The notes under the pieces are model-generated. The model ran no database searches. It was not told the origin of the DNA and saw only the letters and a program-made list of their open reading frames with translations. A stretch of DNA of 54,712 nucleotides from Elusimicrobiota bacterium (GTDB lineage: Bacteria; Elusimicrobiota; Elusimicrobia; Elusimicrobiales; UBA9959). Positions 10,315 to 41,093 of this stretch are shown in pieces. The stretch is from contig DAIENX010000102.1 of the NCBI GenBank assembly GCA_027340875.1, positions 1 through 54,712 on the forward strand, written 5' to 3'. Position numbers and translations under genes: made by a program. Within the stretch, counting starts at the first letter, position 1, and each line of letters starts with the position of its first letter.

Positions 10315-10976
10315 CGCCCGTCCTCCCCGTGCCGCCAGTCGGAGAGTTCGGAGAGCTCCGCGGTGTCTATGTGGTCGAACTCGCGGCTGATGTGGAAGAT
10401 GGCTATGCCCATCACGAACACCGCCACGAAGACGTCCAGCAGTATGGCCAGTTCCACCATAAGCGGCTGCTCCACGAACAGCGCCAGTCCGAAGATGTAG
10501 ATGCCGTTCTCTATGACGAGGTAGCCGAGCACCTGCGTGATGGCCTTAGTGCGGGTGGTGATCAGCAGGAAGCCGGAAAAGATAGTGGCCAGCGAGGCGG
10601 GCACTATCCAGGCCACCTGCGCCTGCGGCAGCGGCAGGCGGGAGCCCATCCATGACGAGGCCAGAAAGGCGCCCAGGCAGAGCAGTATGGAGGCCGGGTA
10701 GCTTATCAGCGGTTCCACGTCCTTGCGGGCCCCGCTGCGGTCGCGCGCGCGCATCAGCAGCCAGGGGAACACCGCGCCCTTCAGCAGCGCTATCCCGGCG
10801 GCGAAGGCGGCCGCCCGCGCGTGCGGCTGCCCGTGGCCGGCCAGCAGCGGCAGCAGCGCGGCCAGCACGCCCTGCACGGCCACCAGCCTGATGCAGCCGG
10901 CCAGCGAGCCGGTCACCGCCAGCGCCAGGTCCAGCAGTATTATCAGCACTATCGAGAGCTCGGCGAAGGTGTGCAT
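10311..10976 (-). CDS. hyfE: Hydrogenase-4 component E-like membrane protein
   Basis: Polytopic; QVLGYLVIENGI and ELAILLDV motifs; operon position. Confidence 0.8.
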   Translation of the reverse strand: MHTFAELSIVLIILLDLALAVTGSLAGCIRLVAVQGVLAALLPLLAGHGQPHARAAAFAAGIALLKGAVFPWLLMRARDRSGARKDVEPLISYPASILLCLGAFLASSWMGSRLPLPQAQVAWIVPASLATIFSGFLLITTRTKAITQVLGYLVIENGIYIFGLALFVEQPLMVELAILLDVFVAVFVMGIAIFHISREFDHIDTAELSELSDWRHGEDGR

Positions 10977-10978
10977 TA

Positions 10979-11246
10979 GGGCTCGTTAAGAAATAACCGG
11001 CATAATTTGGAGGCCCGGATTTGAGACGGGTTCGAGGCGCGACGAGCGAGCATGCCGGCGGTCTGTGAGTGAGGAACAACGAAGAAACCGGCCAAAGACG
11101 GGCCTCCCCCAGGGGGCTGGGCGATCTTTGGCTGCAACTGCGTCACTCGGCGCTTACGTAGCTCCGCTACGCCGCGCTCCTCGTTCCTTGTTTCGCTCAT
11201 AAAATCGCTAAGCCAAATTGCGCCCGTTATTTCTTAACGAGCCCTC
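10979..11246. mobile_element. MITE (about 268 bp) with terminal inverted repeats and probable TA target duplication
   Basis: agggctcgttaagaaataac (10978-10997) is the exact reverse complement of 11226-11245; flanked by TA at 10977-10978 and 11247-11248; no transposase. Confidence 0.85.
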
Positions 11247-26952: not shown

Positions 26953-29900
26953 ATGAAAATATTCAAGGCCTCACTTCATATGGCCGCTTTCCTGATCTTT
27001 CACGGGGCAGTGGCTGCAATGGCACAAGCCCCTTTTAATTCGTCTTTGATCTTTGGCCAAGACATCATTACGGATGGCACGTCTGTTGCTTTGGATTCTC
27101 TGGGAAATCCGCACATCTGTTTCAATAATACAAACATGAATCTTGTGTACGCCAAACGGACAGCGAACTCCTGGATCACACAAGTGGTGGACAATGCGGC
27201 AGGAGTCGGGGAGTACTGCTCCGTCTCTTTGGATAGTTTTGATCGACCGCATATCAGTTATTATGATTCGACCAATAAGGATCTGAAATACGCCCACTGG
27301 ACAGGAACTGCCTGGGAGATCCAAACAGTTGACAGCGCGGGGGAAGTTGGCAGGTTTTCTTCTATTGCCATAGATGGCGCTGGAAATCCGCATATCAGCT
27401 ACGAAGCTGCGCTCGTGAATAAACTCAAATACGCTCACTGGACAGGGGCTGCCTGGGACGTGCAAATAGTGGCGACTGGGACAGGGGCATGGTACACCTC
27501 CATAGCTTTGGATTCTTCAGGAAATCCGAATATCAGTTATTACACCGCGATTTGGTATATTGCCGATCTCGCGTATGCCCATTGGAACGGAAGTTCCTGG
27601 GAAATACAGACCGTGGATGCGGAGGGAGATGTCGGGCTGGAGAGTTCTCTTGCGCTGGATGGGTTGGGGCGGCCTCATATCAGTTATAGGGACCTGACAA
27701 ATCTGGACCTTAAATATGCTTATTGGACCGGAAGTTTCTGGAGTACGCAGACCGTAGTAAGTTCAGGAGAACAGGGGTGGTATTCTTCTATCGCCTTGGA
27801 TGGTTCAGGGAAACCGCATATTACCTACGGAGATGGTTTAGGGCTAGCGGTAAAGTATATTTACTGGGACGGTTCTTCCTGGAATTTACAAACAGTTGAT
27901 GCTGTTACTGGCGGGCACACGTCTCTAGCTTTGGATGGCCAAGGGAACCCACATGTAAGTTACGAGGTTGGGGCGTTAGGGGTTAAATATGCGACCGCCG
28001 CTACGGGCTTTGCTCCGGCTATGGGGGGAGGGAATGGAAGAAGTCGTCCACAGGCCGCCAGTTCGTTAGGGGCAACCTTTGTCTCGACCGGGACTATTGT
28101 GTGGGGGTGGGTTGATAATGCCGTCAATGAGTTGGGATTCAGGCTATACGGCTCTCAGATCAGTTCAGGGCCATATAGTCTTGTCGCGGATACGACAAGC
28201 ATCGGCCCGGACCAAAACAACTTCACGGAAAGCGGTTTGGCGCCTAATACCACTTATTATCGTTATCTTGCGGCGGTAAATGCCGGCGGCCACGTTTTTT
28301 CCAATCTTATCAGCACAGTTACTCCGGCTTCCCAGCCTGCTCAGAGCGATCCAACTTTTATATCAGTTGATTTTACAACTATCGCAGTTCAATGGGGACC
28401 GAACGGCAATCCGCTCGGAACTAAATACGCTCTGCTGACCTCCACCGGAGCTGATCCGGGAGTAAATGGTTTTTCCGGAAATTTGATCTCTATCGTTTCT
28501 AATTCTCAAGCCGACATCGGGTCTTTAAAAGATGGCACAACCTATTTTTTTGCGGTTAAAGCCGTCGGGCATAATGGATATTCGACACCGTATACAAACA
28601 TCGGTTCCACTAGGACCCTGGCTTTAACCACGCCGGATCCCTTCGGCACTGCACTGGGGGTCTCCTCCATTGCCTGGAGTTGGACTGATGGGGCCTATGA
28701 AAGCGGCTATCGGGTCATCAACTCAAGCGATGAAATTCTGTCCGGTGATCTGTCACCGGGAGCGACTTCATGGCTTGAGGGCGGTCTTTCGACCAACACA
28801 GTCTATAGCCGCAGGGTTCTAGCGTTCGCGCCGGTCCTTGCCGCAACTTCCGCTCCGGTTTCCGTCTACACTTTGGCCGTGCCGCCGGAGGGGAGCTACG
28901 TGTCGCAGGCGAGTTCTTCCTCGGTATCTTTGGCCTGGTCGGCCAACTCCAACCCGGGATATACGGTCTATGAGATATCGCGGTCAACCGACGGCTTCTC
29001 GACCTCGTTCTCCACGCCTGTCCCTTACGGGAGCTCCTTTACTGGCACGGACTATTCGGACTCGGGTCTGTTGCCGGAAACGACATATTTTTACCGGATC
29101 AGGGCTTATAACGGCGATGCGGTCCCTACGGATTTTGACTCAGTAGTTTCAACCATTACGCGGCCGGCATTGCCGAATGTCGCGGTTATTTCGCCTGGCA
29201 GCATTGGTATTTCATCCACCGCCATCAATTGGAATTGGAGCATCCAGACCCCTCCCTCGATAACCGGAGTGCGAGTGGTTTCTTCTACCGGGGGGGCGTT
29301 GTCGGGGGATCTCCCTGGGTCTGCTACTTATTACGTCCAAGCCGGCCTTTCCGCTAACGCCAGTTCACAGGTTATGATCGAGGTTTTCAATATTACAGGG
29401 GTTTCCACCTCCGCACCAGTAATTCGCTATGCTTTGGCCAATTCCCCGGTAAGCCCTGAGGTCACAGAGGTTGCCATTACCTCGGCTTCCATTTGCTGGG
29501 GGAGTAATTCAAACCCCGCTTATACGACTTATGACATTGGCGTTTGGGAGGCGGATTCTTCCACGGTCACCATGCGGGTGTCCACGTGCTGCACCAATAT
29601 CACCGGGCTTTATTCGGGAACCACCTATTTCTTCTCTGTTACGGAAGTTAACGGAAACGGGGTGGGGGGGCAAGGGACGGCGGGGATATCTACCGTGACC
29701 CGCCAGGTCCCTTATCTGGGGATTGTTTTTCCGGGGGCGCCGGCAACTGTATCGTACCACTCTTCGCACGGCGAAGTCTCGATAGGGATATCCCCCGGGG
29801 CGTTCGGCGAAACGGTACAGCTTGCGGCTTCGGCACCGGGCGCATACCCTCCTGATACGTCACTGATGGGAGAGCTGCGCGGTTCAGGCGCGGGGGTGGA

Positions 29901-30402
29901 GATAGCTCTGGATAAGCCATTGCAGCCCTCAAATAAGGTTCGGCTGACCGTATCCTATCGTGATGCGGATGTGTCTGGTATGGACGAGAACAAACTGCTC
30001 TTGGCCCGCTATGATACGGCCGGCGGAGTATGGGTTCCGCTGGTTTCCTATCCTGATCCGGATAACAACAGGGTAATGGCATTGGTCGACCATTTTTCCA
30101 CGTTCCAGATAATGCAGGCCATCCCATCCGCGTCTGTTAAAGAGGTTAAGGTGTCGCCCAACCCGTTGCGGCCCGCCCTAGGCCATACGGCCATGGTGTT
30201 CTCCAACCTGCCGGGTTTCGCGGTGTTGCGGATCTATTCTTTGTCGGGGTCGCTTATCCGGGAAATACATGCGGGCGCGGGGGGGATAGCCAGCTGGGAC
30301 GGCAGGAACAAGTCAGGGGTATACGTGGCAAGCGGTGTATACTTTGTCTTCGCGGAGAAGGGCGGCGATAAAAGGACCTTTAAGGTGGCGGTACAGAGAT
30401 AA
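26953..30402 (+). CDS. Large secreted protein: beta-propeller-like repeats, FN3 domains, T9SS-like/FlgD-Ig C-terminal sorting domain
   Basis: Repeats SIALDxxGNPHISY...LKYAHW; FN3 motifs (L.P.TTYY.R); C-terminal SPNP...IYSLSG.LIR...WDGRN.SG..VASGVYF. Confidence 0.8.
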   Translation: MKIFKASLHMAAFLIFHGAVAAMAQAPFNSSLIFGQDIITDGTSVALDSLGNPHICFNNTNMNLVYAKRTANSWITQVVDNAAGVGEYCSVSLDSFDRPHISYYDSTNKDLKYAHWTGTAWEIQTVDSAGEVGRFSSIAIDGAGNPHISYEAALVNKLKYAHWTGAAWDVQIVATGTGAWYTSIALDSSGNPNISYYTAIWYIADLAYAHWNGSSWEIQTVDAEGDVGLESSLALDGLGRPHISYRDLTNLDLKYAYWTGSFWSTQTVVSSGEQGWYSSIALDGSGKPHITYGDGLGLAVKYIYWDGSSWNLQTVDAVTGGHTSLALDGQGNPHVSYEVGALGVKYATAATGFAPAMGGGNGRSRPQAASSLGATFVSTGTIVWGWVDNAVNELGFRLYGSQISSGPYSLVADTTSIGPDQNNFTESGLAPNTTYYRYLAAVNAGGHVFSNLISTVTPASQPAQSDPTFISVDFTTIAVQWGPNGNPLGTKYALLTSTGADPGVNGFSGNLISIVSNSQADIGSLKDGTTYFFAVKAVGHNGYSTPYTNIGSTRTLALTTPDPFGTALGVSSIAWSWTDGAYESGYRVINSSDEILSGDLSPGATSWLEGGLSTNTVYSRRVLAFAPVLAATSAPVSVYTLAVPPEGSYVSQASSSSVSLAWSANSNPGYTVYEISRSTDGFSTSFSTPVPYGSSFTGTDYSDSGLLPETTYFYRIRAYNGDAVPTDFDSVVSTITRPALPNVAVISPGSIGISSTAINWNWSIQTPPSITGVRVVSSTGGALSGDLPGSATYYVQAGLSANASSQVMIEVFNITGVSTSAPVIRYALANSPVSPEVTEVAITSASICWGSNSNPAYTTYDIGVWEADSSTVTMRVSTCCTNITGLYSGTTYFFSVTEVNGNGVGGQGTAGISTVTRQVPYLGIVFPGAPATVSYHSSHGEVSIGISPGAFGETVQLAASAPGAYPPDTSLMGELRGSGAGVEIALDKPLQPSNKVRLTVSYRDADVSGMDENKLLLARYDTAGGVWVPLVSYPDPDNNRVMALVDHFSTFQIMQAIPSASVKEVKVSPNPLRPALGHTAMVFSNLPGFAVLRIYSLSGSLIREIHAGAGGIASWDGRNKSGVYVASGVYFVFAEKGGDKRTFKVAVQR

Positions 30403-30403
30403 T

Positions 30404-31321
30404 ATGGCCTTATTCCTGATATTGCTTATCTTCCTGACGGCGCCGCCGGCGAGCGCGTCTTTTAACGCTGCGGCGAAAGGCACCTCTTCCGCCGGTTTCC
30501 TCACCCTTGGCTCCGGGGCGAGGGGGGTGGCGATGGGCGGGGCCTATTCTGCCGTTGTCGATAACGCCGAAGCCATGTTCTGGAATCCAGCGGCGTTGCT
30601 GCGCGTGAAGAACAGGTCCGTCACCTTCATGCATGCGGCATATATAGCTTCGACCTATTATGACTACGGGGCGTATGTACAGAATTTGGGCGATGAAGAT
30701 GCTTTCGGTGTCGGGTTGCAATATTTTTCTTCAGGCGACATGATGGAAACCGATGTGAACGGCGTCGATCTGGGGAAGTTTTCCCCTGATGATTACTCTT
30801 TGTCGTTCGGCTACGCTATGCTGGTGCGCGATATTAAACTTGGGTTCGTTCTCAAGTATGTGCATTCCACGATACTTTCTACCGCTAAGACGGTTGCCTC
30901 GGATATAGGTGTAATGTTCCCGCCTGTTTACGATGGGAAAGTGAGATTTGCGGTAGTGGGTTCGAATATCGGGGGAGGGCTGAAATATGAAGAGAAGACG
31001 GAAGCGCTGCCAGGGATAGTGAAGCTTGGCGGAGTGTATACAAGCAATGGCTTCGGATTATATAGTCTGGATGTCGGATTTCCGCAAGATGACTCCCCGT
31101 ATTTAGCGATGGGATATGAATATCCCCTACGAATGAGTGATCCTTGGAGACTGCTGGTCAGGTGTGGATTCAACTCTCAGACTGTAGGTGATATCAAAGG
31201 ATTTACCGGCGCTTCTTTCGGCTTCGGGGTGGGTTACGATAAGTACGTTTTTGATTATGCTTTTTCCCCGTTGGGGGATCTTGGGGCCGCTCACCGTATG
31301 GCCGTTTCCGTAAAGTTCTGA
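30404..31321 (+). CDS. PorV/PorQ-family outer-membrane beta-barrel
   Basis: FLTLGSGARGVAMGGAY, FWNPAAL, C-terminal DYAF.P.GDLG..HR...VKF. Confidence 0.8.
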   Translation: MALFLILLIFLTAPPASASFNAAAKGTSSAGFLTLGSGARGVAMGGAYSAVVDNAEAMFWNPAALLRVKNRSVTFMHAAYIASTYYDYGAYVQNLGDEDAFGVGLQYFSSGDMMETDVNGVDLGKFSPDDYSLSFGYAMLVRDIKLGFVLKYVHSTILSTAKTVASDIGVMFPPVYDGKVRFAVVGSNIGGGLKYEEKTEALPGIVKLGGVYTSNGFGLYSLDVGFPQDDSPYLAMGYEYPLRMSDPWRLLVRCGFNSQTVGDIKGFTGASFGFGVGYDKYVFDYAFSPLGDLGAAHRMAVSVKF

Positions 31322-31377
31322 AAAGATTTATCCACTTCCGCCTCCTCCAGGTGGCCTACCATCAGCCGATTGGCCGC

Positions 31378-31492
31378 GGAATCGTGGTCAGGTCTTGAAT
31401 CTTGACATCGAAGCCGCCTGCGGGAGAATTGGGGTCAGGTCTTGATTCTTGACATCGAAGCCGCCGGGGAAAATGCCCGGCGGTTTTGTTTT
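31378..31492 (+). repeat. Island repeat tandem copies c1 (truncated) and c2
   Basis: ggtcaggtcttgaatcttgacatcgaagccgcc followed by gaattggggtcaggtcttgattcttgacatcgaagccgccgggg... Confidence 0.9.
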
Positions 31493-31549
31493 GTCCCGAC
31501 AGGCCGTTGACGGGGTGGGCTGCTATGCTATCTGTGGGAAGGGGGGCTT

Positions 31550-32056
31550 ATGTCCAAGGACGTTATCCCGCAGGAAGCGCTGGAGTTGAAGATACTGCTT
31601 GTTCGCGGCCATAAGGTGATGCTGGACCGCGACCTGGCCGCGCTGTACGGGGTGGAAACGCGGGTTCTGAATCAGGCTGTTCGCCGCAATATCAGGCGAT
31701 TCCCGAAAGACTTTATGTTCTCGTTGACCCGGGAAGAGATCGGGAACTTATCACAATTTGTGACAAGTTCCCGGATAAAGCACGCCCCTAATGTGTTCGC
31801 ATTCACGGAACATGGCATAGCGATGCTTTCCAGCATATTGAAGAGCGAACGGGCCGTTCAGGTTAATATCCATATAGTGCGTGCTTTCGTGAGGCTGCGC
31901 GGTCTTCTGGCCTCGCATCGGGACCTTGCCCGCAGGTTGGACGAGCTGGAGCGGAAATACGACTCACAGTTCAAGAGCGTGTTCGACGCCATCAAGGCGC
32001 TGATGGAGCCGCCTGACGGCCCTGAACCGAAGAGGATCACTGGCTTCAAGCCGTAG
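31550..32056 (+). CDS. ORF6N-domain DNA-binding protein, paralog 1
   Basis: RGHKVMLDRDLAALYGVET..LNQAVRRN..RFP.DFMF.L, FTEHGIAMLSS.L.S. Confidence 0.9.
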   Translation: MSKDVIPQEALELKILLVRGHKVMLDRDLAALYGVETRVLNQAVRRNIRRFPKDFMFSLTREEIGNLSQFVTSSRIKHAPNVFAFTEHGIAMLSSILKSERAVQVNIHIVRAFVRLRGLLASHRDLARRLDELERKYDSQFKSVFDAIKALMEPPDGPEPKRITGFKP

Positions 32057-32156
32057 CTGTATCCGAAGCCGCCGGGGGAAAACCCCGGCGGTTTTGTTTT
32101 GTCCCGACAGGCCCTTGTCGGCGTCGCATGCTATGTTATTTATGGGAAGGGAGGGT

Positions 32157-32237
32157 ATGTCGAAGGATATTATCCCGCAGGAAGTATTGGAATCCAAGAT
32201 ACTGCTTATACGCGGCCACAGGGTGATGCTGGACCGA
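32157..32237 (+). pseudogene. Truncated ORF6N paralog (first 27 codons)
   Basis: MSKDIIPQEVLESKILLIRGHRVMLDR followed immediately by the island repeat; promoter and RBS intact. Confidence 0.85.
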
Positions 32238-32413
32238 GGAATTGGGGTCAGGTCTTGATTCTTGACATCGGGGACTTGGGGTCAGGTCTTGAATCTTGAC
32301 ATCGAAGCCGCCGGGGGAAAAGCCCGGCGGTTTTGGTTTTTGTAGAATGGAATTGGGGTCAGGTCTTGAAACCTGACATCGAAGCCGCCGGGGAAGCCCG
32401 GCGGTTTTGTTTT
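32238..32413 (+). repeat. Island repeat tandem copies d1, d2, d3
   Basis: Three ttggggtcaggtcttga...tgacatcg units at about 32238, 32272 and 32349. Confidence 0.9.
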
Positions 32414-32465
32414 AAAAAGACAGCAGCAGTCTGCAGACTGGAGAACTTTGCTTTAATTTGTGGCC

Positions 32466-33923
32466 CTATGGCCGCTTGTTAGGTGTCAGTTCAACTGTAA
32501 TGGAGTCGGCTTCGCTGTAAATACGTCCGGGTCTTGCCGCTTTGAAAGATACTTTTTCTCCATTGATCTGCAATTCCCGGAAAGATACCCCTTGCGGGGA
32601 TGGGGATGTCTCTTTTCCGTCAACCAGAATCTTCACTTGTCCTTCCCCGATGTTGCCTTCGATCAGAGTCGGATATATAACCGCTCCGCGCAAATCGCGG
32701 ATGGGTTTTATCTTTAGATTCTTTTTCATAACAGACGTGTTCCTGAAAATCAGGCGCAGCGTTGTGTCCCGGAGAAACTCCATTGTGGAGACCGAAGGGT
32801 AAAATACCCCGTCGTTTGTTTTTACCGGTTGTTTGTCGCCTGAAAAACCTTCATCCGTAAAAGTCCTGGCATCCCAGCTTATCAAGGACAGCTTTCCACG
32901 TCCAGCCGAAAAACTTTTTGCGTCGGCTGCCGCAGTTCTGCTCATGGCGGCATTAACGTTTTCAAAGGAGGCAACAAGTGCCTGATAGTTGTACTTTTTA
33001 TAAGTCTTATCGATCTGGGCGCTGTCTGGCAGGCCGGTCCTGTATTGTTCCAGCGCTAACTGATAGATTGGTGTGCCTGCTTCTAGTCTCGACTTCCAGG
33101 GAGCGCGCAATCTGTCTAACAGGCGCATTTGAGCCGCGCCGGTTAAGTAGTATTTAACTTTATCGTTCTGTTTCTCCACCGGCATTAACAGCATATTTGC
33201 CAGAAACGTATCCGGCGATGTGGTGATACTGCCGGCTTTTCCGGCTGGTTCCGAGTATTTCAGCTCTACATATTGGGCGGACCCTTCCAGTCTCTCGCTT
33301 TGATCTTCCCAGGCCGTTGCCCCGGTATCTTGACGTTTAAGACGATCTCGTCTTGCCGCCAGAAAGAGCCTGAAGTCGTCCTGCCAGCTATCGGGAGAAA
33401 TTAATGCTTTTGCAAGCAACAACTCCTCAATGTAGAAAGCCGCGTGTTGCGCCGCGCTTGACGTTGCGGGTTTTGCTGCCGGCACGGCCGCAAACCTGTT
33501 GTGCTGGAAAGAATGGAATGTCTCATGGGAAACAAGATTCAATGTGCTCTCCGGCGTGGCGCCCAACAGACGCCTGACATAAAACACTGGAACACCATCA
33601 TACACATATTCCGACAAAAAAACGGATTCAGCCGGCCGTTGGAATCGGGGGTTCTTGTAAACGGGGAGAGCGTTACCCTTGTCTATGCGTGTAAATCCTT
33701 TCGTGGGTTTCGGGTAATTTATGAGGTATCCGGCACCGGTTTCATCAGCCAGTAAGATGGGCCTTTCAAGAGGTGAATAACCCGGCCAGACCGGGACAGC
33801 ATTTTTATGCTTATCGATGAGTTTGTCAACAACATCTTCTGCCGCCGAATGACGCTGTTCGCCGGCAGAGAGGATGTTTAAGCTGAGCAGCGCGATGGGC
33901 AGAAAAACAGAGGATTTAATCAT
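32466..33923 (-). CDS. Exported protein with HExxH motif (putative zinc metallopeptidase-like)
   Basis: Start MIKSSVFLPIALL; SHETFHSFQ and downstream EGSAQYVE. Confidence 0.65.
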   Translation of the reverse strand: MIKSSVFLPIALLSLNILSAGEQRHSAAEDVVDKLIDKHKNAVPVWPGYSPLERPILLADETGAGYLINYPKPTKGFTRIDKGNALPVYKNPRFQRPAESVFLSEYVYDGVPVFYVRRLLGATPESTLNLVSHETFHSFQHNRFAAVPAAKPATSSAAQHAAFYIEELLLAKALISPDSWQDDFRLFLAARRDRLKRQDTGATAWEDQSERLEGSAQYVELKYSEPAGKAGSITTSPDTFLANMLLMPVEKQNDKVKYYLTGAAQMRLLDRLRAPWKSRLEAGTPIYQLALEQYRTGLPDSAQIDKTYKKYNYQALVASFENVNAAMSRTAAADAKSFSAGRGKLSLISWDARTFTDEGFSGDKQPVKTNDGVFYPSVSTMEFLRDTTLRLIFRNTSVMKKNLKIKPIRDLRGAVIYPTLIEGNIGEGQVKILVDGKETSPSPQGVSFRELQINGEKVSFKAARPGRIYSEADSITVELTPNKRP

Positions 33924-34482
33924 AACAATGCTGGATACACTCGCATTTGTGTGTGTAGACAATATGGTTCCAACAGGTATAGATATACCTGCAGCTGTCC
34001 GGAACAAGCCCGGTAGGATCACAAACCCAATCCCACTTACAGTCTTCTACCCATTGTTCATCATCATCGCAATGGAATAACTGTGGACCGCTCCAGTTTT
34101 CATAAGAATGTCGATTCGCCGCATCCGTCAGGAACATCCTGGGCGGGATGACCATCCCGCGCAACTCCTGTGCGGAAATCTGATTGGCGGGAGAACCGTG
34201 ATAACAGTATAAGTTCGGCGTAGTAAAACAATTGAAAGAATCCGTGATTGTCGCCGTGCCTTTTTTTATTGATACTACCACTTCGGCTGAGTGGCGAAGA
34301 GATGTTTCCGACCCAGTTGACACCGGCACCGCCGGGCATGCATTAGGGAAAGTCTGTGGTGTTTCCAGCAGCAAGCGTTCCGCTTGTGCTAACTCTACTT
34401 CAAAACTTGTCTTGTTGTTGCCGGCAAAAGTGCTGCCAACAGAAGTAGCGAATATCGTAAGGCAGAGCGCAATGATTTTCAT
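33916..34482 (-). CDS. Secreted Cys-rich hypothetical protein
   Basis: Signal peptide MKIIALCL...TFA; Cys/Trp-rich C-terminus; RBS-like ggggga. Confidence 0.65.
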   Translation of the reverse strand: MKIIALCLTIFATSVGSTFAGNNKTSFEVELAQAERLLLETPQTFPNACPAVPVSTGSETSLRHSAEVVVSIKKGTATITDSFNCFTTPNLYCYHGSPANQISAQELRGMVIPPRMFLTDAANRHSYENWSGPQLFHCDDDEQWVEDCKWDWVCDPTGLVPDSCRYIYTCWNHIVYTHKCECIQHCYD

Positions 34483-34717
34483 TTAGTTCTTCCCCCCATA
34501 AAAAAACGGGAAAGCGGGTTAATTCGCTTTCCCTGGATACACCGGATTAAGGTCCGGTCGTGGATACTTCGGGGCCAATTCCCCGAATTACAAGGAGACT
34601 ACAATTAAAGTTTAGCTGATAGTGGTTACGTGTGGAAGTGTCTTTGGACCTATTGGGTTCTGGGCCCTCGTTTTCCCGCAGTTGAATTCTCCCATTACTG
34701 GCGCAATTTCTTCCGGG

Positions 34718-34856
34718 GGAATTGGGGTCAGGTCTTGATTCTTGACATCGAAGCCGCCGGAAGGTTCCGGCGGTTTTGTTTTTAAATTAACATAATCCAC
34801 CAAAAAGGTAGCTGCTACCTTTTTCAACCCTTAAAAGGCAGCAGGAGCCTTTTTTG
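34718..34856 (+). repeat. Island repeat copy e with extra palindrome
   Basis: Near-identical to copy a plus a 30-bp insert containing aaaaaggtagc-t-gctaccttttt. Confidence 0.9.
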
Positions 34857-34913
34857 ACCACGACAGGCGGTTGTCGGGGTGCTCTGATATGCTATCAGTA
34901 GGAAGGGGGGCTT

Positions 34914-35432
34914 ATGTCCAAAGACGTTATCCCGCAGGAAGCGCTGGAGTCGAAGATACTGCTTATTCGCGGCCACAGGGTAATGCTGGACCGAGACCTG
35001 GCCGCGCTGTACGGGGTTGAGACCCGCATGTTGAATCAGGCGGTGAAGCGGAACAGTAAGCGGTTTCCGGAAGATTTTGTGTTCAGATTGACTGCAGCGG
35101 AGACTTCGGTTTGGGTATCACAATTTGTGATACCCAATTCAAAGATCAAAAAAGGCTTAAGAATAAGTCCGCTTGCCTTTACCGAGAACGGCGTAGCCAT
35201 GCTCTCGAGCGTTCTTAACAGCCCCCGTGCCATAGCGGTGAACATCCAGATAATGCGCATGTTCACGCGGCTGCGGGGGCTGCTGGCCTCTCACCGCGAT
35301 CTGGCGCGCAGGATGGATGAGCTGGAGAAGAAATACGACGCGCAGTTCAAGAGCGTCTTCGACGCGATAAGGGCGCTGATGGAGCCGCCGGATGGCCCGG
35401 AGCCTAAGAGGATAACCGGCTTCAAGCCGTAA
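34914..35432 (+). CDS. ORF6N-domain DNA-binding protein, paralog 2
   Basis: Same ORF6N motifs; core WVSQFVIPN. Confidence 0.9.
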   Translation: MSKDVIPQEALESKILLIRGHRVMLDRDLAALYGVETRMLNQAVKRNSKRFPEDFVFRLTAAETSVWVSQFVIPNSKIKKGLRISPLAFTENGVAMLSSVLNSPRAIAVNIQIMRMFTRLRGLLASHRDLARRMDELEKKYDAQFKSVFDAIRALMEPPDGPEPKRITGFKP

Positions 35433-35512
35433 TAAAAACCCGGCGGTTTTGTTTTGTCCCGACAGGCGGTTGTCGGGGTCTCCTGCTATGCTATCTGTGG
35501 GAAGGGGGGCTT

Positions 35513-36022
35513 ATGTCCAAAGACGTTATCCCGCAGGAAGTGCTGGAGTCGAAGATACTGCTTGTTCGCGGCCACAGGGTGATGCTCGACCGTGACCTGG
35601 GCGCGCTGTACGGGGTCGGAACCCGTGATCTGAATAAAGCGGTTTCACGTAATATGGAGCGGTTCCCGGAGGACTTCATGTTCCGCCTGGACGGGTCAGA
35701 GCTGGAAAACTTGATGTTCCAATTTGGAACATCAAGTTGGGGCGGGACCAGAAAGCCCCCGAGGGTGTTTACCGAACATGGGATATTGATGCTGTCCTCG
35801 GTGCTTAAAAGCCGGCGCGCCATAGCGGTGAACATCCAGATAATGCGTACTTTCACGCGGTTGCGCGGGCTGCTGGCCTCAAGTAGGGATCTTGCCCGCA
35901 AGGTGGCCGAGCTCGAGAAGAAATACGACGCGCAGTTCAAGAGCGTCTTCGACGCGATAAGGGCGCTGATGGAGCCGCCTGACGGCCCGGAGCCCAAGAA
36001 GATAACCGGCTTCAAACCATAA
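35513..36022 (+). CDS. ORF6N-domain DNA-binding protein, paralog 3
   Basis: Same ORF6N motifs; core LMFQFGTSS. Confidence 0.9.
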   Translation: MSKDVIPQEVLESKILLVRGHRVMLDRDLGALYGVGTRDLNKAVSRNMERFPEDFMFRLDGSELENLMFQFGTSSWGGTRKPPRVFTEHGILMLSSVLKSRRAIAVNIQIMRTFTRLRGLLASSRDLARKVAELEKKYDAQFKSVFDAIRALMEPPDGPEPKKITGFKP

Positions 36023-36049
36023 TAAAACCCCGGCGGTTTTGTTTTTGGG

Positions 36050-36227
36050 GAACATATCACATTTTGTGATATGTTCAAGGTCGCAATTTGCGGCCTTGAA
36101 ACTTGAAGTGCCAATTTGGCACCTCAAACTGGGTGGATAACTGGGTATCGCAAAATGCGATACCTGATTTGGCGGTCACAAACTGTGACCTCAAACCGAA
36201 TCTTTAAGGTTCCAAATTGGAACTTTA
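36050..36227 (+). repeat. Array of six palindromes, each resembling an ORF6N variable-core coding fragment
   Basis: Palindromes at 36050-36076, 36074-36100, 36103-36127, 36144-36164, 36174-36190 and 36205-36227, all centred on CA-nnn-TG. Confidence 0.85.
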
Positions 36228-36288
36228 GAAACTCGACATCCCCTTGGCGGGTTGGTCTGCCAGGATATAAGCGGGAAAGGGGGGCGAT

Positions 36289-36798
36289 ATGAAAGAGGTT
36301 ATATCCCTGGAGATGATCGAGCAAAAGATATACTTTATTCGGGGACACAGGGTCATGCTGGATAGTGATCTGGCGGAAATGTACGAGGTGCCGACAGGGC
36401 ATCTTAATAGGGCGGTTATCCGAAATATCGAAAGTTTCCCGTCTGATTTTATGTTCCAGCTTTCGGAGCGGGAATACCGGTCTTTAAGATGCCGATCTGG
36501 CATCTTAAAGCGCGGGACTCATTCCAAGTATCTGCCGCGTGTTTTCATGGAGCAGGGAGTCGGCATGCTGTCCAGTGTGCTCAAGAGCAAACGTGCCCGG
36601 CAGGTGAATATCCATATCATGCGGGCTTTCGTTAAGCTTCGCCGGCTTCTTAATACTCACAAGGAACTGTCCCGAAAGCTGGAAGAATTGGAAAAGAAAT
36701 ATGACGCCCAGTTCAAGAGCGTGTTCGACGCCATCAAGGCGCTGATGGAGCCGCCGGATGGCCCGGAGCCCAAGAAGATAACCGGCTTCAAGCCGTAA
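36289..36798 (+). CDS. ORF6N-domain DNA-binding protein, paralog 4
   Basis: Same ORF6N motifs; core LRCRSGILK. Confidence 0.9.
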   Translation: MKEVISLEMIEQKIYFIRGHRVMLDSDLAEMYEVPTGHLNRAVIRNIESFPSDFMFQLSEREYRSLRCRSGILKRGTHSKYLPRVFMEQGVGMLSSVLKSKRARQVNIHIMRAFVKLRRLLNTHKELSRKLEELEKKYDAQFKSVFDAIKALMEPPDGPEPKKITGFKP

Positions 36799-36950
36799 TA
36801 AAAACCCGGCGGCTTTGTTTTGTCCCGACAGTCGGTTGTCGGGTTAGCCTGCTATGCTATCGATGAGGGGAAGGTGCATATCGGGTCTTGAAAATAGGTC
36901 TTGCGCATACAGTATATATCATGTAGACTATTTTCAGGGAAGGGGGCGGG

Positions 36951-37289
36951 ATGTACTGCGTGGAGTTTTGGCGGGACGCGGGAGGGGGCTGTCCCGCCAG
37001 GGACTTCCTGGACGGCCTGCCGGTGAAGGTCAGGGCGAAGACGGCCAAGTGGCTGCAGCTCTTGCAGGAGGGGGGACCGGACCTGAAGAGGCCGTACGCG
37101 GACATGCTTGCGGACGGCATACGGGAGCTGAGGCTGTCGTTCGGGCGTCTGGAGGTCAGGCTGCTCTACTTCATAGAAGGCAGAGAGATAGTGCTGACCA
37201 ACGGGTTCCTCAAGAAGACGCGCCATACGCCGACAGGCGAGATAGAGCGGGCGAGAAGGAGCAGGGCCGTCTGGCTGGCGGCGAGGTGA
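36951..37289 (+). CDS. RelE/ParE-superfamily (Gp49/HigB-like) toxin
   Basis: G.CP..DFL..L, L.RPYAD.L.DGIRELR, RLLYF, LTNGFLKKT..TP..EI; promoter TTGCGC-17-TAGACT within an inverted repeat. Confidence 0.85.
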   Translation: MYCVEFWRDAGGGCPARDFLDGLPVKVRAKTAKWLQLLQEGGPDLKRPYADMLADGIRELRLSFGRLEVRLLYFIEGREIVLTNGFLKKTRHTPTGEIERARRSRAVWLAAR

Positions 37290-37293
37290 GGTT

Positions 37294-37590
37294 ATGAAAA
37301 AAAAGAAACAGACGCTGAACGGCTGGCTTAAGGGCGAACTGAAGAATAAAGAGTTCAGGAAAGCCTTTGATGCTGAGGATATCCGCGCGCGGATGGCGCT
37401 CATGATAGCCGAGAGGCGCCAGAACCTTCACGTCAGCCAGGCGGAGCTGGCGCGCCGGGTGCATACCAAGCAGCAGGTCATTTCCGACATCGAAACGCTG
37501 CGGCATCCCAATATCACCATCCTGACGCTGGACAGGATAGCCAGGGCGCTCAACAGCGACCTGCGCATCTCGCTACGCCCTATACATTAA
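37294..37590 (+). CDS. XRE HTH antitoxin (HigA-like)
   Basis: SQAELARRVHTKQQVISDIE; directly downstream of the toxin. Confidence 0.85.
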   Translation: MKKKKQTLNGWLKGELKNKEFRKAFDAEDIRARMALMIAERRQNLHVSQAELARRVHTKQQVISDIETLRHPNITILTLDRIARALNSDLRISLRPIH

Positions 37591-37738
37591 CCGGAGGGAG
37601 TTCCGGGGGGAGTTCAGGAGCCACAATATTTAATTAGCGCCGCCGGGGAAAAGCCCGGCGGTTTTGTTTTGGGGCGGGGGGGCGATTTAGTATTATCGCA
37701 TAATGGAAAATCATTGCGGGCAGCGGTTCCGCTGAACT

Positions 37739-38362
37739 ATGGAGAGCAAACATAAGGAAGAGCTGGCCAACAGCATAACCCATATGGTGGGCGTGGCGCT
37801 GGCTATGGCGGGGCTGGCGGTGCTGGTGGTGTCGGCTTCGCTGCGCGGCGATCCGTGGCGCATAGTGAGCTTTTCGGTATACGGGTTTACCCTGCTCTAC
37901 CTCTATTCCTCTTCGGCCCTCTACCACGTCACTTACGGCAGGGTGAAAAAATTCCTGCGCCTCGTGGATTACCAGGCCATCTACCTGCTCATAGCCGGCA
38001 CCTATACGCCTTTCGTGCTGGTGACCCTGCGCGGCACCGTGGGCTGGTGGCTGTTCGGTATCATCTGGGGTCTGGCCGCCTTCGGCATAGTGCTGGATAC
38101 TTTCTACGGCCGGGGCCGGCGCATTCTTCAGCTCGTTATCTATCTCGCTATGGGCTGGCTTATAACCGTGGCGCTGGGACCGCTGGTGCGGGCGCTGCCG
38201 GCGCGCGGCATGGCGTTGCTGGTGCTGGGCGGGCTGTTCTACACTTCGGGCGTGGTTTTCTACGTGCTGGACAGGCGCTTCCATTACTTCCACGCCGTGT
38301 GGCACCTCTTCGTGCTGGCCGGCAGTCTGTGCCATTACTTCGCGGTGCTGTTCTACATTTAA
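37739..38362 (+). CDS. Hemolysin III / PAQR family membrane protein
   Basis: EELANSITH, SSALYH, IYLLIAGTYTPF, HAVWHLFVL. Confidence 0.9.
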   Translation: MESKHKEELANSITHMVGVALAMAGLAVLVVSASLRGDPWRIVSFSVYGFTLLYLYSSSALYHVTYGRVKKFLRLVDYQAIYLLIAGTYTPFVLVTLRGTVGWWLFGIIWGLAAFGIVLDTFYGRGRRILQLVIYLAMGWLITVALGPLVRALPARGMALLVLGGLFYTSGVVFYVLDRRFHYFHAVWHLFVLAGSLCHYFAVLFYI

Positions 38363-38460
38363 GCGGCTCCATCAGCCTTGCTGCCGCCGGGTCTCCCCGG
38401 CGGTTTTGTTTTGGGCGGAAAGATTAGGCGCGGCCGATTGTATATAATGCAGGAGGAAAG

Positions 38461-39045
38461 ATGGAACAGACCGACCTGCAGATACTCGACCGCGTAGCCT
38501 CGGGGGACGCCGACGCCTTCGAACTGATAGTGAGGCGCTACCAGGGCCTGGTGTACGACCTGTCCTGGCGGCTGCTGGGGGACGCTTCGGAGGCGGAGGA
38601 CGCGGCGCAGGCCGCGTTCATAAGGATGTATTCCGCGCTGGGCTCTTATAAGCGGGAGATGCCGTTCCGCAACTGGGTCTACACTGTCACGCTGAACGTG
38701 GCCCGCAACCGGCTGAAGCGCGGCCGCCTGCTGAGTTTCCTGCCGTTCATGGGCCCCGGAGATGATGAAGGCGTCCCGGAGCCGGCCGAGGCCGGCGGGT
38801 CCCCGGAAGAGCAGCTCGAGGGCGGCGGCCTGCGCCGCGCGCTCGAGGGCGCCATAGCGGCCCTGCCCGAGGAGCTGAAGACCGCGTTCGTGCTGTTCCA
38901 CCTGCACCGCCTCCCGGCGAAGGACATAGCCGAAACGCTGGGCGTAACGCCCAACGCCGTAAGCCTGCGCCTGTATAAGGCGCGCGGGCGCCTGGCGAAG
39001 GCGCTTTCGCCCGCCTATCCTGAATACCGCGTGGAGGGCATATGA
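38461..39045 (+). CDS. ECF sigma-70 factor
   Basis: AEDAAQAAF, FRNWVY, region 4 IAETLGVTPNAVSLRLYKAR. Confidence 0.85.
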   Translation: MEQTDLQILDRVASGDADAFELIVRRYQGLVYDLSWRLLGDASEAEDAAQAAFIRMYSALGSYKREMPFRNWVYTVTLNVARNRLKRGRLLSFLPFMGPGDDEGVPEPAEAGGSPEEQLEGGGLRRALEGAIAALPEELKTAFVLFHLHRLPAKDIAETLGVTPNAVSLRLYKARGRLAKALSPAYPEYRVEGI

Positions 39046-39623
39046 ACGAGAAGGACCTTGAGAAGAAATTCGGGGAAGCGTGCGCCGGCGTGCCGCTGCG
39101 CGAGCCGCGCGATCTCTGGCCCGGGGTGCGCGCCGGCATAACCGGCCGACGTGTCTCCGCCTTCGGCCGCAGGTCGGCCTGGGCGGCCGGCTTCGCCGCG
39201 GCGGCCGTCATAGTGGTGCTCTCCATGCCGGGCGCCACTCAGAGCATAAAGAACGGGTTGAAGCGTCTGTTCTCGAGCGCCTACTCCGTCTCTATAGGCG
39301 GCCAGCAGGCCTCCGGCACGCTGATCTCCATGGACGGCGAGGAGAAGGAGATAAAGAGCGGCGACATGCTGCTGAAGGTGAAGGTTTCCTCCTGGGACGA
39401 GAAAACGGCCATGGTGGAGTTGTCGGTGTTCTACGAGGGGCTTCAGCCGGACGGCAGCACGCGGAAGCTGATATCGCATCCTAAGATACTCGCCATGAAG
39501 GGCCGCGCTGCGGAGATCACCGTCACCAACAATACCGGCAAACCGGTGTACAAGTTCCGCATAGTGCCCACGGAAACGGATCCCACCGTTTATTCCGGGG
39601 ACATGGTCCCCATCAAGGGCTGA
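39042..39623 (+). CDS. Putative membrane anti-sigma factor
   Basis: ATGA overlap with the sigma gene, single TM helix, extracytoplasmic C-terminal domain. Confidence 0.6.
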   Translation: MNEKDLEKKFGEACAGVPLREPRDLWPGVRAGITGRRVSAFGRRSAWAAGFAAAAVIVVLSMPGATQSIKNGLKRLFSSAYSVSIGGQQASGTLISMDGEEKEIKSGDMLLKVKVSSWDEKTAMVELSVFYEGLQPDGSTRKLISHPKILAMKGRAAEITVTNNTGKPVYKFRIVPTETDPTVYSGDMVPIKG

Positions 39624-39769
39624 TACCGCCGCCTACAGGACCGCCGGGGAAGCCCGGCGGTTTTGTTTTGGGGCGGGGCTGTCCCGCCGTATGGAGATAG
39701 CCTTTCCGGGCGATTCCCCTTTTTATCCTCAGCGGTTATAATTTCCTTGGGGTTGGGTTAGGGGGGCGT

Positions 39770-39994
39770 ATGACCAGGATATTGAGCACCGCCAAGGACG
39801 TGCTGGTGGAGAACACGGGACTGAAGTTCCCGCGGCTGGTGGATATCAGCCTTAAGAAAGGCCAGTACCACGTCATTCTGGACATGTACGACGCGGCGGC
39901 CAAGCCGGGGGACGCCGCCAGCCGTACCTACGACGTCAGGATAGATGAGGCCGGCCGGCTGCGCGGCTATACGCTTCTCAAGCGGGCAGTGTAG
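39770..39994 (+). CDS. Hypothetical protein, 74 aa
   Basis: RBS-like gggggg, host-like codons, followed by a hairpin repeat. Confidence 0.6.
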
Positions 39995-40106
39995 CCGGGT
40001 GCTGGGAGCGCGTATAACGAAGCCGCCGGAAAGTTCCGGCGGTCGTGTTTGGAGCGGGTGGCGGCGCGGTCCGGGAAATGTTTATGATCCGGTGAGGGGG
40101 TACGCT

Positions 40107-41093
<987 letters not shown>

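Follow-up and report, generated by a model that had tools for sequence, protein, structure and literature searches.

An intragenic palindrome of ORF6N genes that covaries with a predicted DNA-recognition helix of the encoded proteins

The window analyzed here, a 54,712-nucleotide (nt) stretch of DNA from an Elusimicrobiota bacterium (assembly GCA_027340875.1, contig DAIENX010000102.1, positions 1 to 54,712), carries between 31.5 and 36.8 kb four co-oriented genes of the ORF6N family, each 168 to 172 codons long, which we call W1 to W4. We found that every one of them contains, about 190 to 225 nt into its coding sequence, an inverted repeat built on a common 27-bp plan, that this plan recurs in relatives from many phyla, and that its inner bases covary with residues of a predicted recognition helix encoded upstream of it. 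Comparison of the sequences makes it quite probable that every ORF6N protein has its cognate 27-bp binding site in the palindrome of its own gene. The four genes and their sites are as follows (the sites, being symmetric, are given without strand).

31550..32056, + strand: W1, ORF6N paralog of 168 residues (Pfam PF10543, E 5.1e-31; PADLOC PDC-S05, E 5e-52)
31744..31770: W1 intragenic 27-bp site, centre 31757; 12 of 13 positions paired, all six invariant bases present
34914..35432, + strand: W2, ORF6N paralog of 172 residues (Pfam, E 2.6e-31; PDC-S05, E 6e-54)
35111..35137: W2 intragenic 27-bp site, centre 35124; 13 of 13 positions paired, arms of 13 nt, perfect
35513..36022, + strand: W3, ORF6N paralog of 169 residues (Pfam, E 2.8e-30; modeled with AlphaFold2)
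35710..35736: W3 intragenic 27-bp site, centre 35723; 13 of 13 positions paired
36289..36798, + strand: W4, ORF6N paralog of 169 residues (Pfam, E 6.2e-29; PDC-S05, E 1.4e-54)
36483..36509: W4 intragenic site, centre 36496; 11 of 13 positions paired, five of six invariant bases present

Symmetry extends beyond the 27 bp in W1, whose inverted repeat reaches 31741-31773 (arms of 16 nt, one mismatch), and in W3, where a perfect palindrome spans 35708-35738 (arms of 15 nt). W4 has perfect 12-nt arms (36482-36493 and 36499-36510) around five unpaired central nucleotides. A preliminary description of this DNA had reported all four inverted repeats; we recovered them at the same positions, with arms of 12 to 16 nt and at most one mismatch, and the peptides it quoted from them (LSQFVTS, VSQFVIP, MFQFGTS, and RCRSGIL) are correct. 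The symmetry exceeds that of synonymous controls. When the 11 codons around each centre were replaced by synonymous codons drawn from family usage, in 20,000 trials per gene, the observed pairing was reached in 2 trials for W1, 1 for W2, 0 for W3, and 9 for W4; across the family, 5 of 18,600 recodings reached it. Synonymous shuffles within each gene gave a mean best hairpin score of 5.9, compared to 11.8 observed, and 82 of 2,820 shuffles attained the observed score. Selection on the protein alone is insufficient to account for the palindromes, as had been proposed, because recodings almost never restore the symmetry and because the motif survives a change of reading frame (see below).

Membership of the four proteins in the ORF6N family is clear from the PF10543 hidden Markov model, which they match at 100.6 to 108.2 bits (gathering threshold, 27.8 bits). 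They also match three PDC-S05 models of PADLOC (E 1e-36 to 1e-54), among them PDLC04856 (E 1.4e-54 to 5.3e-52), and at E ≤ 0.01 the PADLOC scan of W1 to W4 returned PDC-S05 models alone; the PADLOC library includes a model for BstA. The genome (2.8 Mb in 112 contigs, 92% complete) has six Pfam matches to ORF6N in all, the two beyond the window being an intact copy on contig C80 and a truncated one on contig C68. The C68 copy (10746-11010, locus L006) ends after the ORF6N domain; its intragenic site is still perfect, all 13 positions being paired, and about 40 nt upstream of its ATG lies another site whose inner type is the same. ORF6N genes are accessory, with 0 to 8 copies per genome among 40 congeners, and relatives are found across phyla at 55 to 70% identity.

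Among W1 to W4, the flanks of the genes (the first ∼100 and last ∼90 nt) are 86 to 100% identical in DNA, and identity drops to 17 to 66% from about nt 100 to about nt 280. The preliminary description equated a hypervariable core with the palindrome. The core is indeed hypervariable; the variable block is wider, running from the predicted recognition helix through just past the site.

To place the site in a family-wide frame, we used two sets of genes. A pattern scan of one genome per species gave 568 confirmed relatives, of which the best 80 loci were analyzed; these derive from Elusimicrobia, Terriglobia, Desulfobacterota-type lineages, Verrucomicrobiota, Planctomycetota, Nitrospirota, Chloroflexota, and one methanogen metagenome-assembled genome. 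Set 1 comprises 94 genes (the 4 in the window, the 1 on C80, and 89 from the 80 loci) and omits matches of fewer than 120 residues, the truncated copy on C68, and loci duplicating the window. Set 2 comprises 79 new genes from a second scan, seeded with one gene in which the motif is read out of frame. The best hairpin of the coding sequence is the same element in 94 of 94 set 1 genes, and the palindrome is a feature of the family across many phyla. Counting positions 1 to 13 outward from the centre on each side, position 3 is C and position 6 is T on both arms of all 94 genes, and position 2 is A in 92. Positions whose bases vary nonetheless pair: positions 4, 5, and 8 to 12 in 85 to 94 of the 94 genes, and position 13 in 84. 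Position 7, which is A or G, is complementary in 75 genes, and position 1 is paired in 70. In set 2, the site is present in 76 or 77 of 79 genes; two genes have lost it and one has a partial match. Among three homologues on gut phage contigs (42 to 54% identity), two keep both the site and the residue-to-base rule described below, and the third has altered spacing. ORF6N relatives occur in only five phage records of INPHARED, and a search of IMG/VR viral contigs with the four-paralog alignment gave 220 pattern matches, none of which was confirmed. In some relatives the coding sequence contains a tandem pair of sites or an insert (L056 2313-2374, L066, and L044/L075/L086), and L056_2140 has two in-frame palindromes 37 nt apart.

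The position of the motif relative to the reading frame is informative. Its centre falls on the first codon base in 89 of the 94 set 1 genes, a phasing in which second codon positions of one arm pair with wobble positions of the other. In four set 1 genes, the motif is read one base out of frame, yielding peptides such as VVTNCDH or VVAICDH rather than the usual RSQIVT or RSQFAT, and in one the frame is broken. Set 2 has 49 genes in the shifted frame (encoding, for example, VVANCDH where RSQFATS would otherwise stand) and 30 in the usual frame. Judged by these frames, the conserved entity is the DNA motif, not the peptide that it encodes.

Bases 4, 5, and 7 of the half-site covary with residues 38, 39, and 42 of the protein, which lie outside the palindrome-coded peptide and within a predicted recognition helix. 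That helix is encoded in the four window genes as follows.

31658..31687, + strand: W1 predicted recognition helix, residues 37-46 (R38, V39, Q42), aligned to the W3 model
35022..35051, + strand: W2 predicted recognition helix (R38, M39, Q42), from alignment and model
35621..35650, + strand: W3 predicted recognition helix (R38, D39, K42), helix 37-46 of the AlphaFold model
36394..36423, + strand: W4 predicted recognition helix (G, H, and R at aligned positions 38, 39, and 42), from alignment

Base 4 shares 1.07 bits of mutual information with residue 39 and 1.05 bits with residue 42, out of 1.34, whereas every other column outside the palindrome-coded peptide, including those between helix and site, reaches at most 0.42 bits; base 7 shares 0.70 of 1.0 bits with residue 38. 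In set 1, Q42 goes with CA (16 of 17 AQ genes and 32 of 33 VQ genes), the combination of R39 and E42 with CG (9 of 9), K42 combined with N, D, or E at position 39 with TC (11 of 11), and R42 with C at position 4. K38 is accompanied by G at position 7 of both arms in 42 of 42 genes, and R38 mostly by A. The residue 42 rule fits all four window genes (W1, ATCACA/GTCACA; W2, ATCACA; W3, GTTCCA; W4, ATGCC). Contacts of glutamine with adenine, of arginine or lysine with guanine on the other strand, and of glutamate with cytosine are classic in protein-DNA recognition, and by that standard the pairings we observed are chemically sensible.

The rules derived from set 1 were then applied out of sample to the 76 set 2 genes in which the site lies where it normally does. 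Base 4 was predicted from residue 42 in both arms of 70 genes, in one arm of 1, and in neither arm of 5; of these five misfits, four share R39 and Q42 with TG, a sub-rule with one earlier case in set 1, and the fifth is a mis-picked site. K38 predicted G at position 7 in 62 of 64 set 2 genes. The rules hold in both frames: E42 occurs with CG in 16 set 2 genes in frame 0 and 31 in frame +1, and Q42 occurs with CA in 3 and 13, respectively. We considered the palindrome-coded peptide as the main DNA-reading element and rejected it, because genes in the shifted frame encode an unrelated peptide and obey the same helix rule. That this peptide is the "specificity segment" of the preliminary description is not supported, the best predictors of the inner bases lying in the helix some 25 to 30 codons upstream.

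An AlphaFold2 model of W3, built on a 93-sequence alignment, has a mean predicted local distance difference test score of 80.5. It consists, in order, of helix 26-33, a short turn, helix 37-46, a strand, helix 61-71, a loop modeled with less confidence (72-83), and a long helix (101-137). Helices 26-33 and 37-46 are predicted to form a helix-turn-helix arrangement, and residues 38, 39, and 42 fall within the second of these. The palindrome codes for residues ∼66 to 76, that is, the last part of helix 61-71 and the first part of the loop. Compared with DNA-binding domains, the N-terminal 100 residues of the model gave best Z scores of 4.7 to 6.9, with matches to Dachshund (Z 6.2), Ski-like (Z 5.9), Mbp1 (Z 4.7), and pSK1 Par bound to centromere DNA (Z 5.0; root mean square deviation, 2.2 over 53 residues). 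Foldseek gave the Ski-like match a probability of 0.96, with E values of at least 0.058. No relevant sequence relative with a solved structure was found, the best match being a formin coiled coil (E 0.026). Given these middling scores and the lack of solved structures among sequence relatives, assignment to a winged-helix fold of the KilA-N/APSES type is only suggestive.

From these observations we infer the following arrangement. The N-terminal helix-turn-helix would read DNA, and the long C-terminal helix probably dimerizes the protein, which as a dimer would sit on a two-fold symmetric site. Residues 38, 39, and 42 would read bases 7, 5, and 4, respectively, of each half-site, through contacts of Q42 with A, of E42 (with R39) with G, of K42 or R42 with C, and of K38 with G at position 7; residues ∼76 to 81, just past the palindrome-coded peptide, may track outer bases 8 to 13. 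The peptide encoded by the palindrome would mostly tolerate what the site dictates, which could account for its hypervariable appearance and for the use of two reading frames across the site. Symmetry would be maintained by selection for dimer binding, not by templating. That each protein binds the palindrome within its own coding sequence was one of two explanations offered in the preliminary description, and it is the one favored by the covariation of helix and site, the two frames, and the out-of-sample prediction.

Sites of this type are also found outside coding sequences. A strict site pattern occurs 10 times in the 2.8-Mb genome, every time at an ORF6N locus, so that no regulon is visible beyond these loci. 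Across the loci of relatives, 28 sites lie within 200 bp upstream of 19 genes, and same-genus loci contain 26 noncoding and 36 intragenic sites. The outer bases (8 to 13) of upstream sites resemble those of the next gene's intragenic site (4.04 versus 3.14 of 6, p 0.0045). The regions upstream of W1 to W3 are without an ORF6N-type site. The window contains one group of noncoding sites:

36050..36229, no strand: six ORF6N-type sites abutting one another in an array that separates the W3 terminator from the W4 promoter region, with centres at 36063, 36087, 36115, 36154, 36182, and 36216

The + strand of this stretch has no open reading frame (ORF) of 60 or more codons. Each array site corresponds to a different gene among the six ORF6N genes, differing from that gene's site at one or two of nine variable positions, and in the optimal one-to-one assignment 33 of 36 outer and 45 of 54 variable positions match. 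This is a better match than that of random sextets of genes drawn from all phyla (p 0.001, outer; p 0.005, variable) or from the same genus (p 0.003 and 0.024), with the reservation that random sextets often repeat a type, which lowers the null. We considered the array as a directory of the resident paralogs and rejected that idea: two congeners with a single ORF6N gene each also carry several noncoding sites (three different upstream sites in G005 and five sites in G024), so arrays need no resident partners, and in 40 relatives the array as a whole is not kept.

Another palindrome, CCCGACA-N6-TGTCGGG, which is unrelated to the first, stands 55 nt upstream of the ATG of every ORF6N copy, the truncated one included, and is also present at an ORF6N gene of a congener. 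Nine matches occur in the window versus 0.37 expected; it may be a promoter element or another regulator's operator. A sigma-70 promoter scan was uninformative, with 5 matches compared to 4.7 expected. Positions of the palindrome are as follows.

31495, 32103, 34859, 35458, 36232, and 36824: CCCGACA-N6-TGTCGGG copies at the ORF6N cluster
1719, 17489, and 18394: CCCGACA-N6-TGTCGGG copies elsewhere in the window

Several observations weigh against cognate binding by the encoded protein. At the inner bases (4, 5, and 7), upstream sites match the next gene's site no better than chance (1.68 versus a null of 1.86 of 3, p 0.86), so they are not simple auto-operators, and such noncognate upstream sites argue against simple promoter autoregulation. 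The rule has exceptions, namely, the R39/Q42 genes with TG and L081, in which Q42 occurs with C. Set 2 is dominated by one subfamily, 31 of its 79 genes being KRE/CG in frame +1. Helix and site lie only ∼70 to 100 nt apart within one divergent mosaic block of ∼180 nt, and the raw association is inflated because both are coinherited as one recombination block. Tests on phylogenetically independent pairs, using a tree built from the flanks alone (120 columns, few supported branches), are underpowered: for Q42 and A, there were seven independent pairs, 5.4 going the same way and 0 the opposite (median p 0.06), and the other contrasts gave p 0.125 for E42, 0.06 for K/R42, and 0.25 for K38. Finally, the fold matches to DNA-binding domains are, as noted, middling.

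Some of these same facts would be expected if the palindrome were the target of another factor, such as a recombinase, nuclease, or repressor encoded elsewhere, and the helix tracked it only through the shared exchanged block: helix and site do sit in one ∼180-nt mosaic block, the independent-pair tests fall short of significance, and noncoding sites are often noncognate to the adjacent gene. Against this, the columns between helix and site reach at most 0.41 bits for base 4 compared to 1.05 to 1.07 for residues 39 and 42. In addition, the residue-base pairings are those chemically expected, the sites in this genome are confined to ORF6N loci, and no conserved partner gene was noticed beside 80 + 80 loci in site scans in which neighbors were unannotated. 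We regard another factor's target as improbable. An RNA hairpin, formed in the mRNA or an antisense RNA and selected for its structure as a processing, pausing, or stability element, seems to us very improbable. Compensatory changes do maintain a stem of 12 to 16 pairs, and 29 of 59 mismatches, read on the sense strand, are of the A.C or C.A kind and would become G.U in an antisense RNA. Wobble on the sense strand is not favored, though (13 G.T/T.G versus 29 A.C/C.A), and pairing continues to within one base of the centre, leaving no viable loop. A stem has no need of the sequence-specific invariants C3, T6, and A2, nor does it explain the covariation with helix residues or the copies, upstream and downstream of genes, in intergenic DNA that does not look transcribed. 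No Rfam family matches the element, the sole overlap being rivX at 19.6 bits (gathering score, 100).

The other explanation in the preliminary description was diversification templated by the hairpin itself, in which fold-back during replication or repair lets one arm template the other and so varies a specificity segment. Quasi-palindromes are known to mutate by template switching, changes in the two arms go together (84 to 94 of 94 genes are paired at variable positions), and the core is the most divergent part of the paralogs. The distribution of site types does not look like the product of such a process: types are discrete, identical 27-mers recur in distant phyla, and in L010, L044, L074, L075, and L086 the same 13-nt half-site occurs on both arms. 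Asymmetries between arms, which templating should erase, are stable across lineages; position 7 is A on one arm and G on the other in 14 R38 genes, and a TTCC-left/GTGCC-right combination recurs in L042, L049, L060, and L083, and is also copied upstream in L049. Nor does templating explain the invariant bases or the link to the helix, and the 92%-complete genome has no match to the reverse transcriptase model RVT_1. Within-population variants, which the preliminary description had suggested looking for, were not seen: in Logan contigs from four metagenome runs of one study (a fifth run, with 7% of words, was left out), all four cores and the array were covered with no differing bases, which is weak evidence since contigs drop rare variants. 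Taken with the rest, these points leave hairpin templating barely credible.

If the encoded protein does bind its palindrome, we take the purpose to be self-recognition: the gene would carry its own protein's site, the two being inseparable, and because the site is inside the gene, protein and site are inherited together. Two forms of this appear about equally plausible to us, namely, autogenous control by a roadblock or operator that travels with a mobile gene, and a site, like the aba element of BstA, through which a candidate anti-phage protein is neutralized or self is marked for it. We also entertain, tentatively and as something rather less likely than not to prove correct, a more specific scheme of widespread barcoded self-recognition, in which each variant of a candidate anti-phage protein is tied to its own 27-bp site, specificity can be reprogrammed through the residue-to-base rule, and binding inactivates the protein or marks DNA as self, on the model of aba and BstA. 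Under this scheme, an arms race would drive the many specificities, and noncoding arrays, the one described here among them, could be collected decoys or immunity tokens against sister variants. Confirmation of binding would provide a natural set of small orthogonal DNA-binding proteins whose pairs can be read through the residue-to-base rule, to which this genome alone would contribute four intact tandem genes and two more. It would also mean that coding DNA is constrained at once by a protein and by that protein's own binding site, an arrangement that survives a change of frame, and would give a testable handle on the control of a very common candidate defense gene.

The surroundings of the cluster contain further features, listed here with their positions.

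32158..32240, + strand: fifth ORF6N copy in the cluster, a truncated 5' stump of ∼27 codons (tblastn match to residues 1-31)
32466-34022, - strand: 518-residue protein, no Pfam match
33916-34482, - strand: 188-residue Cys-rich protein with a signal-like N terminus, no Pfam match
36951-37590, + strand: Gp49/HigB-like toxin gene (PF05973, E 2.4e-19) and HTH_3 antitoxin-like gene (E 2.4e-11)
26513, 26851, 31386, 31433, 32246, 32280, 32357, and 34726, + strand: copies of the GGTCAGGTCTTGAWTCTTGACATC repeat

The stump, whose tblastn match corresponds to L002 positions 2069-2161, is cut off at about 32240 by the dispersed repeat GGTCAGGTCTTGAWTCTTGACATC, which is usually followed by a terminator hairpin, GAAGCCGCCGG...CCGGCGGTTTT. 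The repeat occurs eight times in the window versus 0 expected, and against Rfam it gave only a sub-threshold match to DUF3800-III. In each of the four runs, contig depth at 32320-32503 is 4- to 6-fold the flanking depth. A 2dG-II purine riboswitch aptamer (34528-34598, - strand; 85.8 bits versus a gathering score of 60, E 5.6e-22) lies upstream of the two ORFs without a Pfam match, and the toxin and antitoxin-like genes lie directly 3' of the ORF6N cluster. G+C content is ∼47 to 57% over 27 to 37 kb and 60 to 69% beyond 37.5 kb (examined over 27000-41000); the ORF6N cluster is in the lower-G+C part, adjoining a PorV-like gene (30335-31321) and a hemolysin III-like gene (37739-38362).

Binding sites within the gene of their own binder have precedents in the lambda ori iterons in gene O and in parS within parB/spo0J, and operators inside coding DNA are known from lac O2 and gal OI; among lambdoid phages, site and protein specificity differ together from phage to phage. 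Like lambda O and ParB, ORF6N genes have a dyad-symmetric site in the coding DNA of the presumed binding protein. They differ in having a single site, at one fixed codon position, in nearly every member across many phyla; in following a simple residue-to-base rule; and in lying outside replication or partition modules. Diversity-generating retroelements and similar systems of templated hypermutation work through a templating enzyme such as a reverse transcriptase and vary within populations; in the genome studied here, which is 92% complete, there is no RVT_1 match, and the contigs from four runs lack site variants. At the level of fold, the N-terminal 100 residues bear some likeness to winged-helix and KilA-N/APSES domains, including Mbp1, the Dachshund homology domain of Dachshund/Ski, MerR-like pSK1 Par, and RacA. 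We found no published account of an ORF6N palindrome in the literature on ORF6N, KilA-N, and PDC-S05, surveyed mostly at the level of titles and abstracts.

As for defense, a representative of PDC-S05 was reported in a preprint to lower plating of T7 and T5 on E. coli by ∼1,000-fold (10.1101/2024.09.26.614923). The representative assayed carried a Virulence_RhuM domain and is, for that reason, a longer relative of the proteins described here; W1 to W4 match the family models, and the short ORF6N proteins are best called candidate defense proteins only. The relevant passages of the preprint do not mention an intragenic site.

The closest parallel is BstA, a KilA-N-type abortive-infection protein that is switched off by aba, a DNA element in its own locus, thereby sparing the prophage that carries it (Owen et al. 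2021, PMC8585504). According to the parts of that account bearing on aba, the element is 63 bp long, comprises 29 bp upstream of the gene and its first 34 bp, depends on terminal direct CCCGCC repeats, and is variant specific to its BstA (PMC8585504). BstA and ORF6N proteins are both defense or candidate defense proteins with a domain for DNA binding at the N terminus, of the KilA-N type in BstA and tentatively so in ORF6N, and in both a short DNA element lies inside or overlaps the protein's own gene, each variant having its cognate element (for ORF6N, as suggested by covariation). They differ in that aba spans the start codon and has direct repeats, whereas the ORF6N element is a 27-bp palindrome in mid-gene, and in that BstA is larger and prophage borne. 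ORF6N genes would thus share the logic of BstA and aba, not their anatomy; if so, a DNA antidote of the BstA/aba type, carried in the gene itself, would extend from a few enterobacterial prophages to many phyla.

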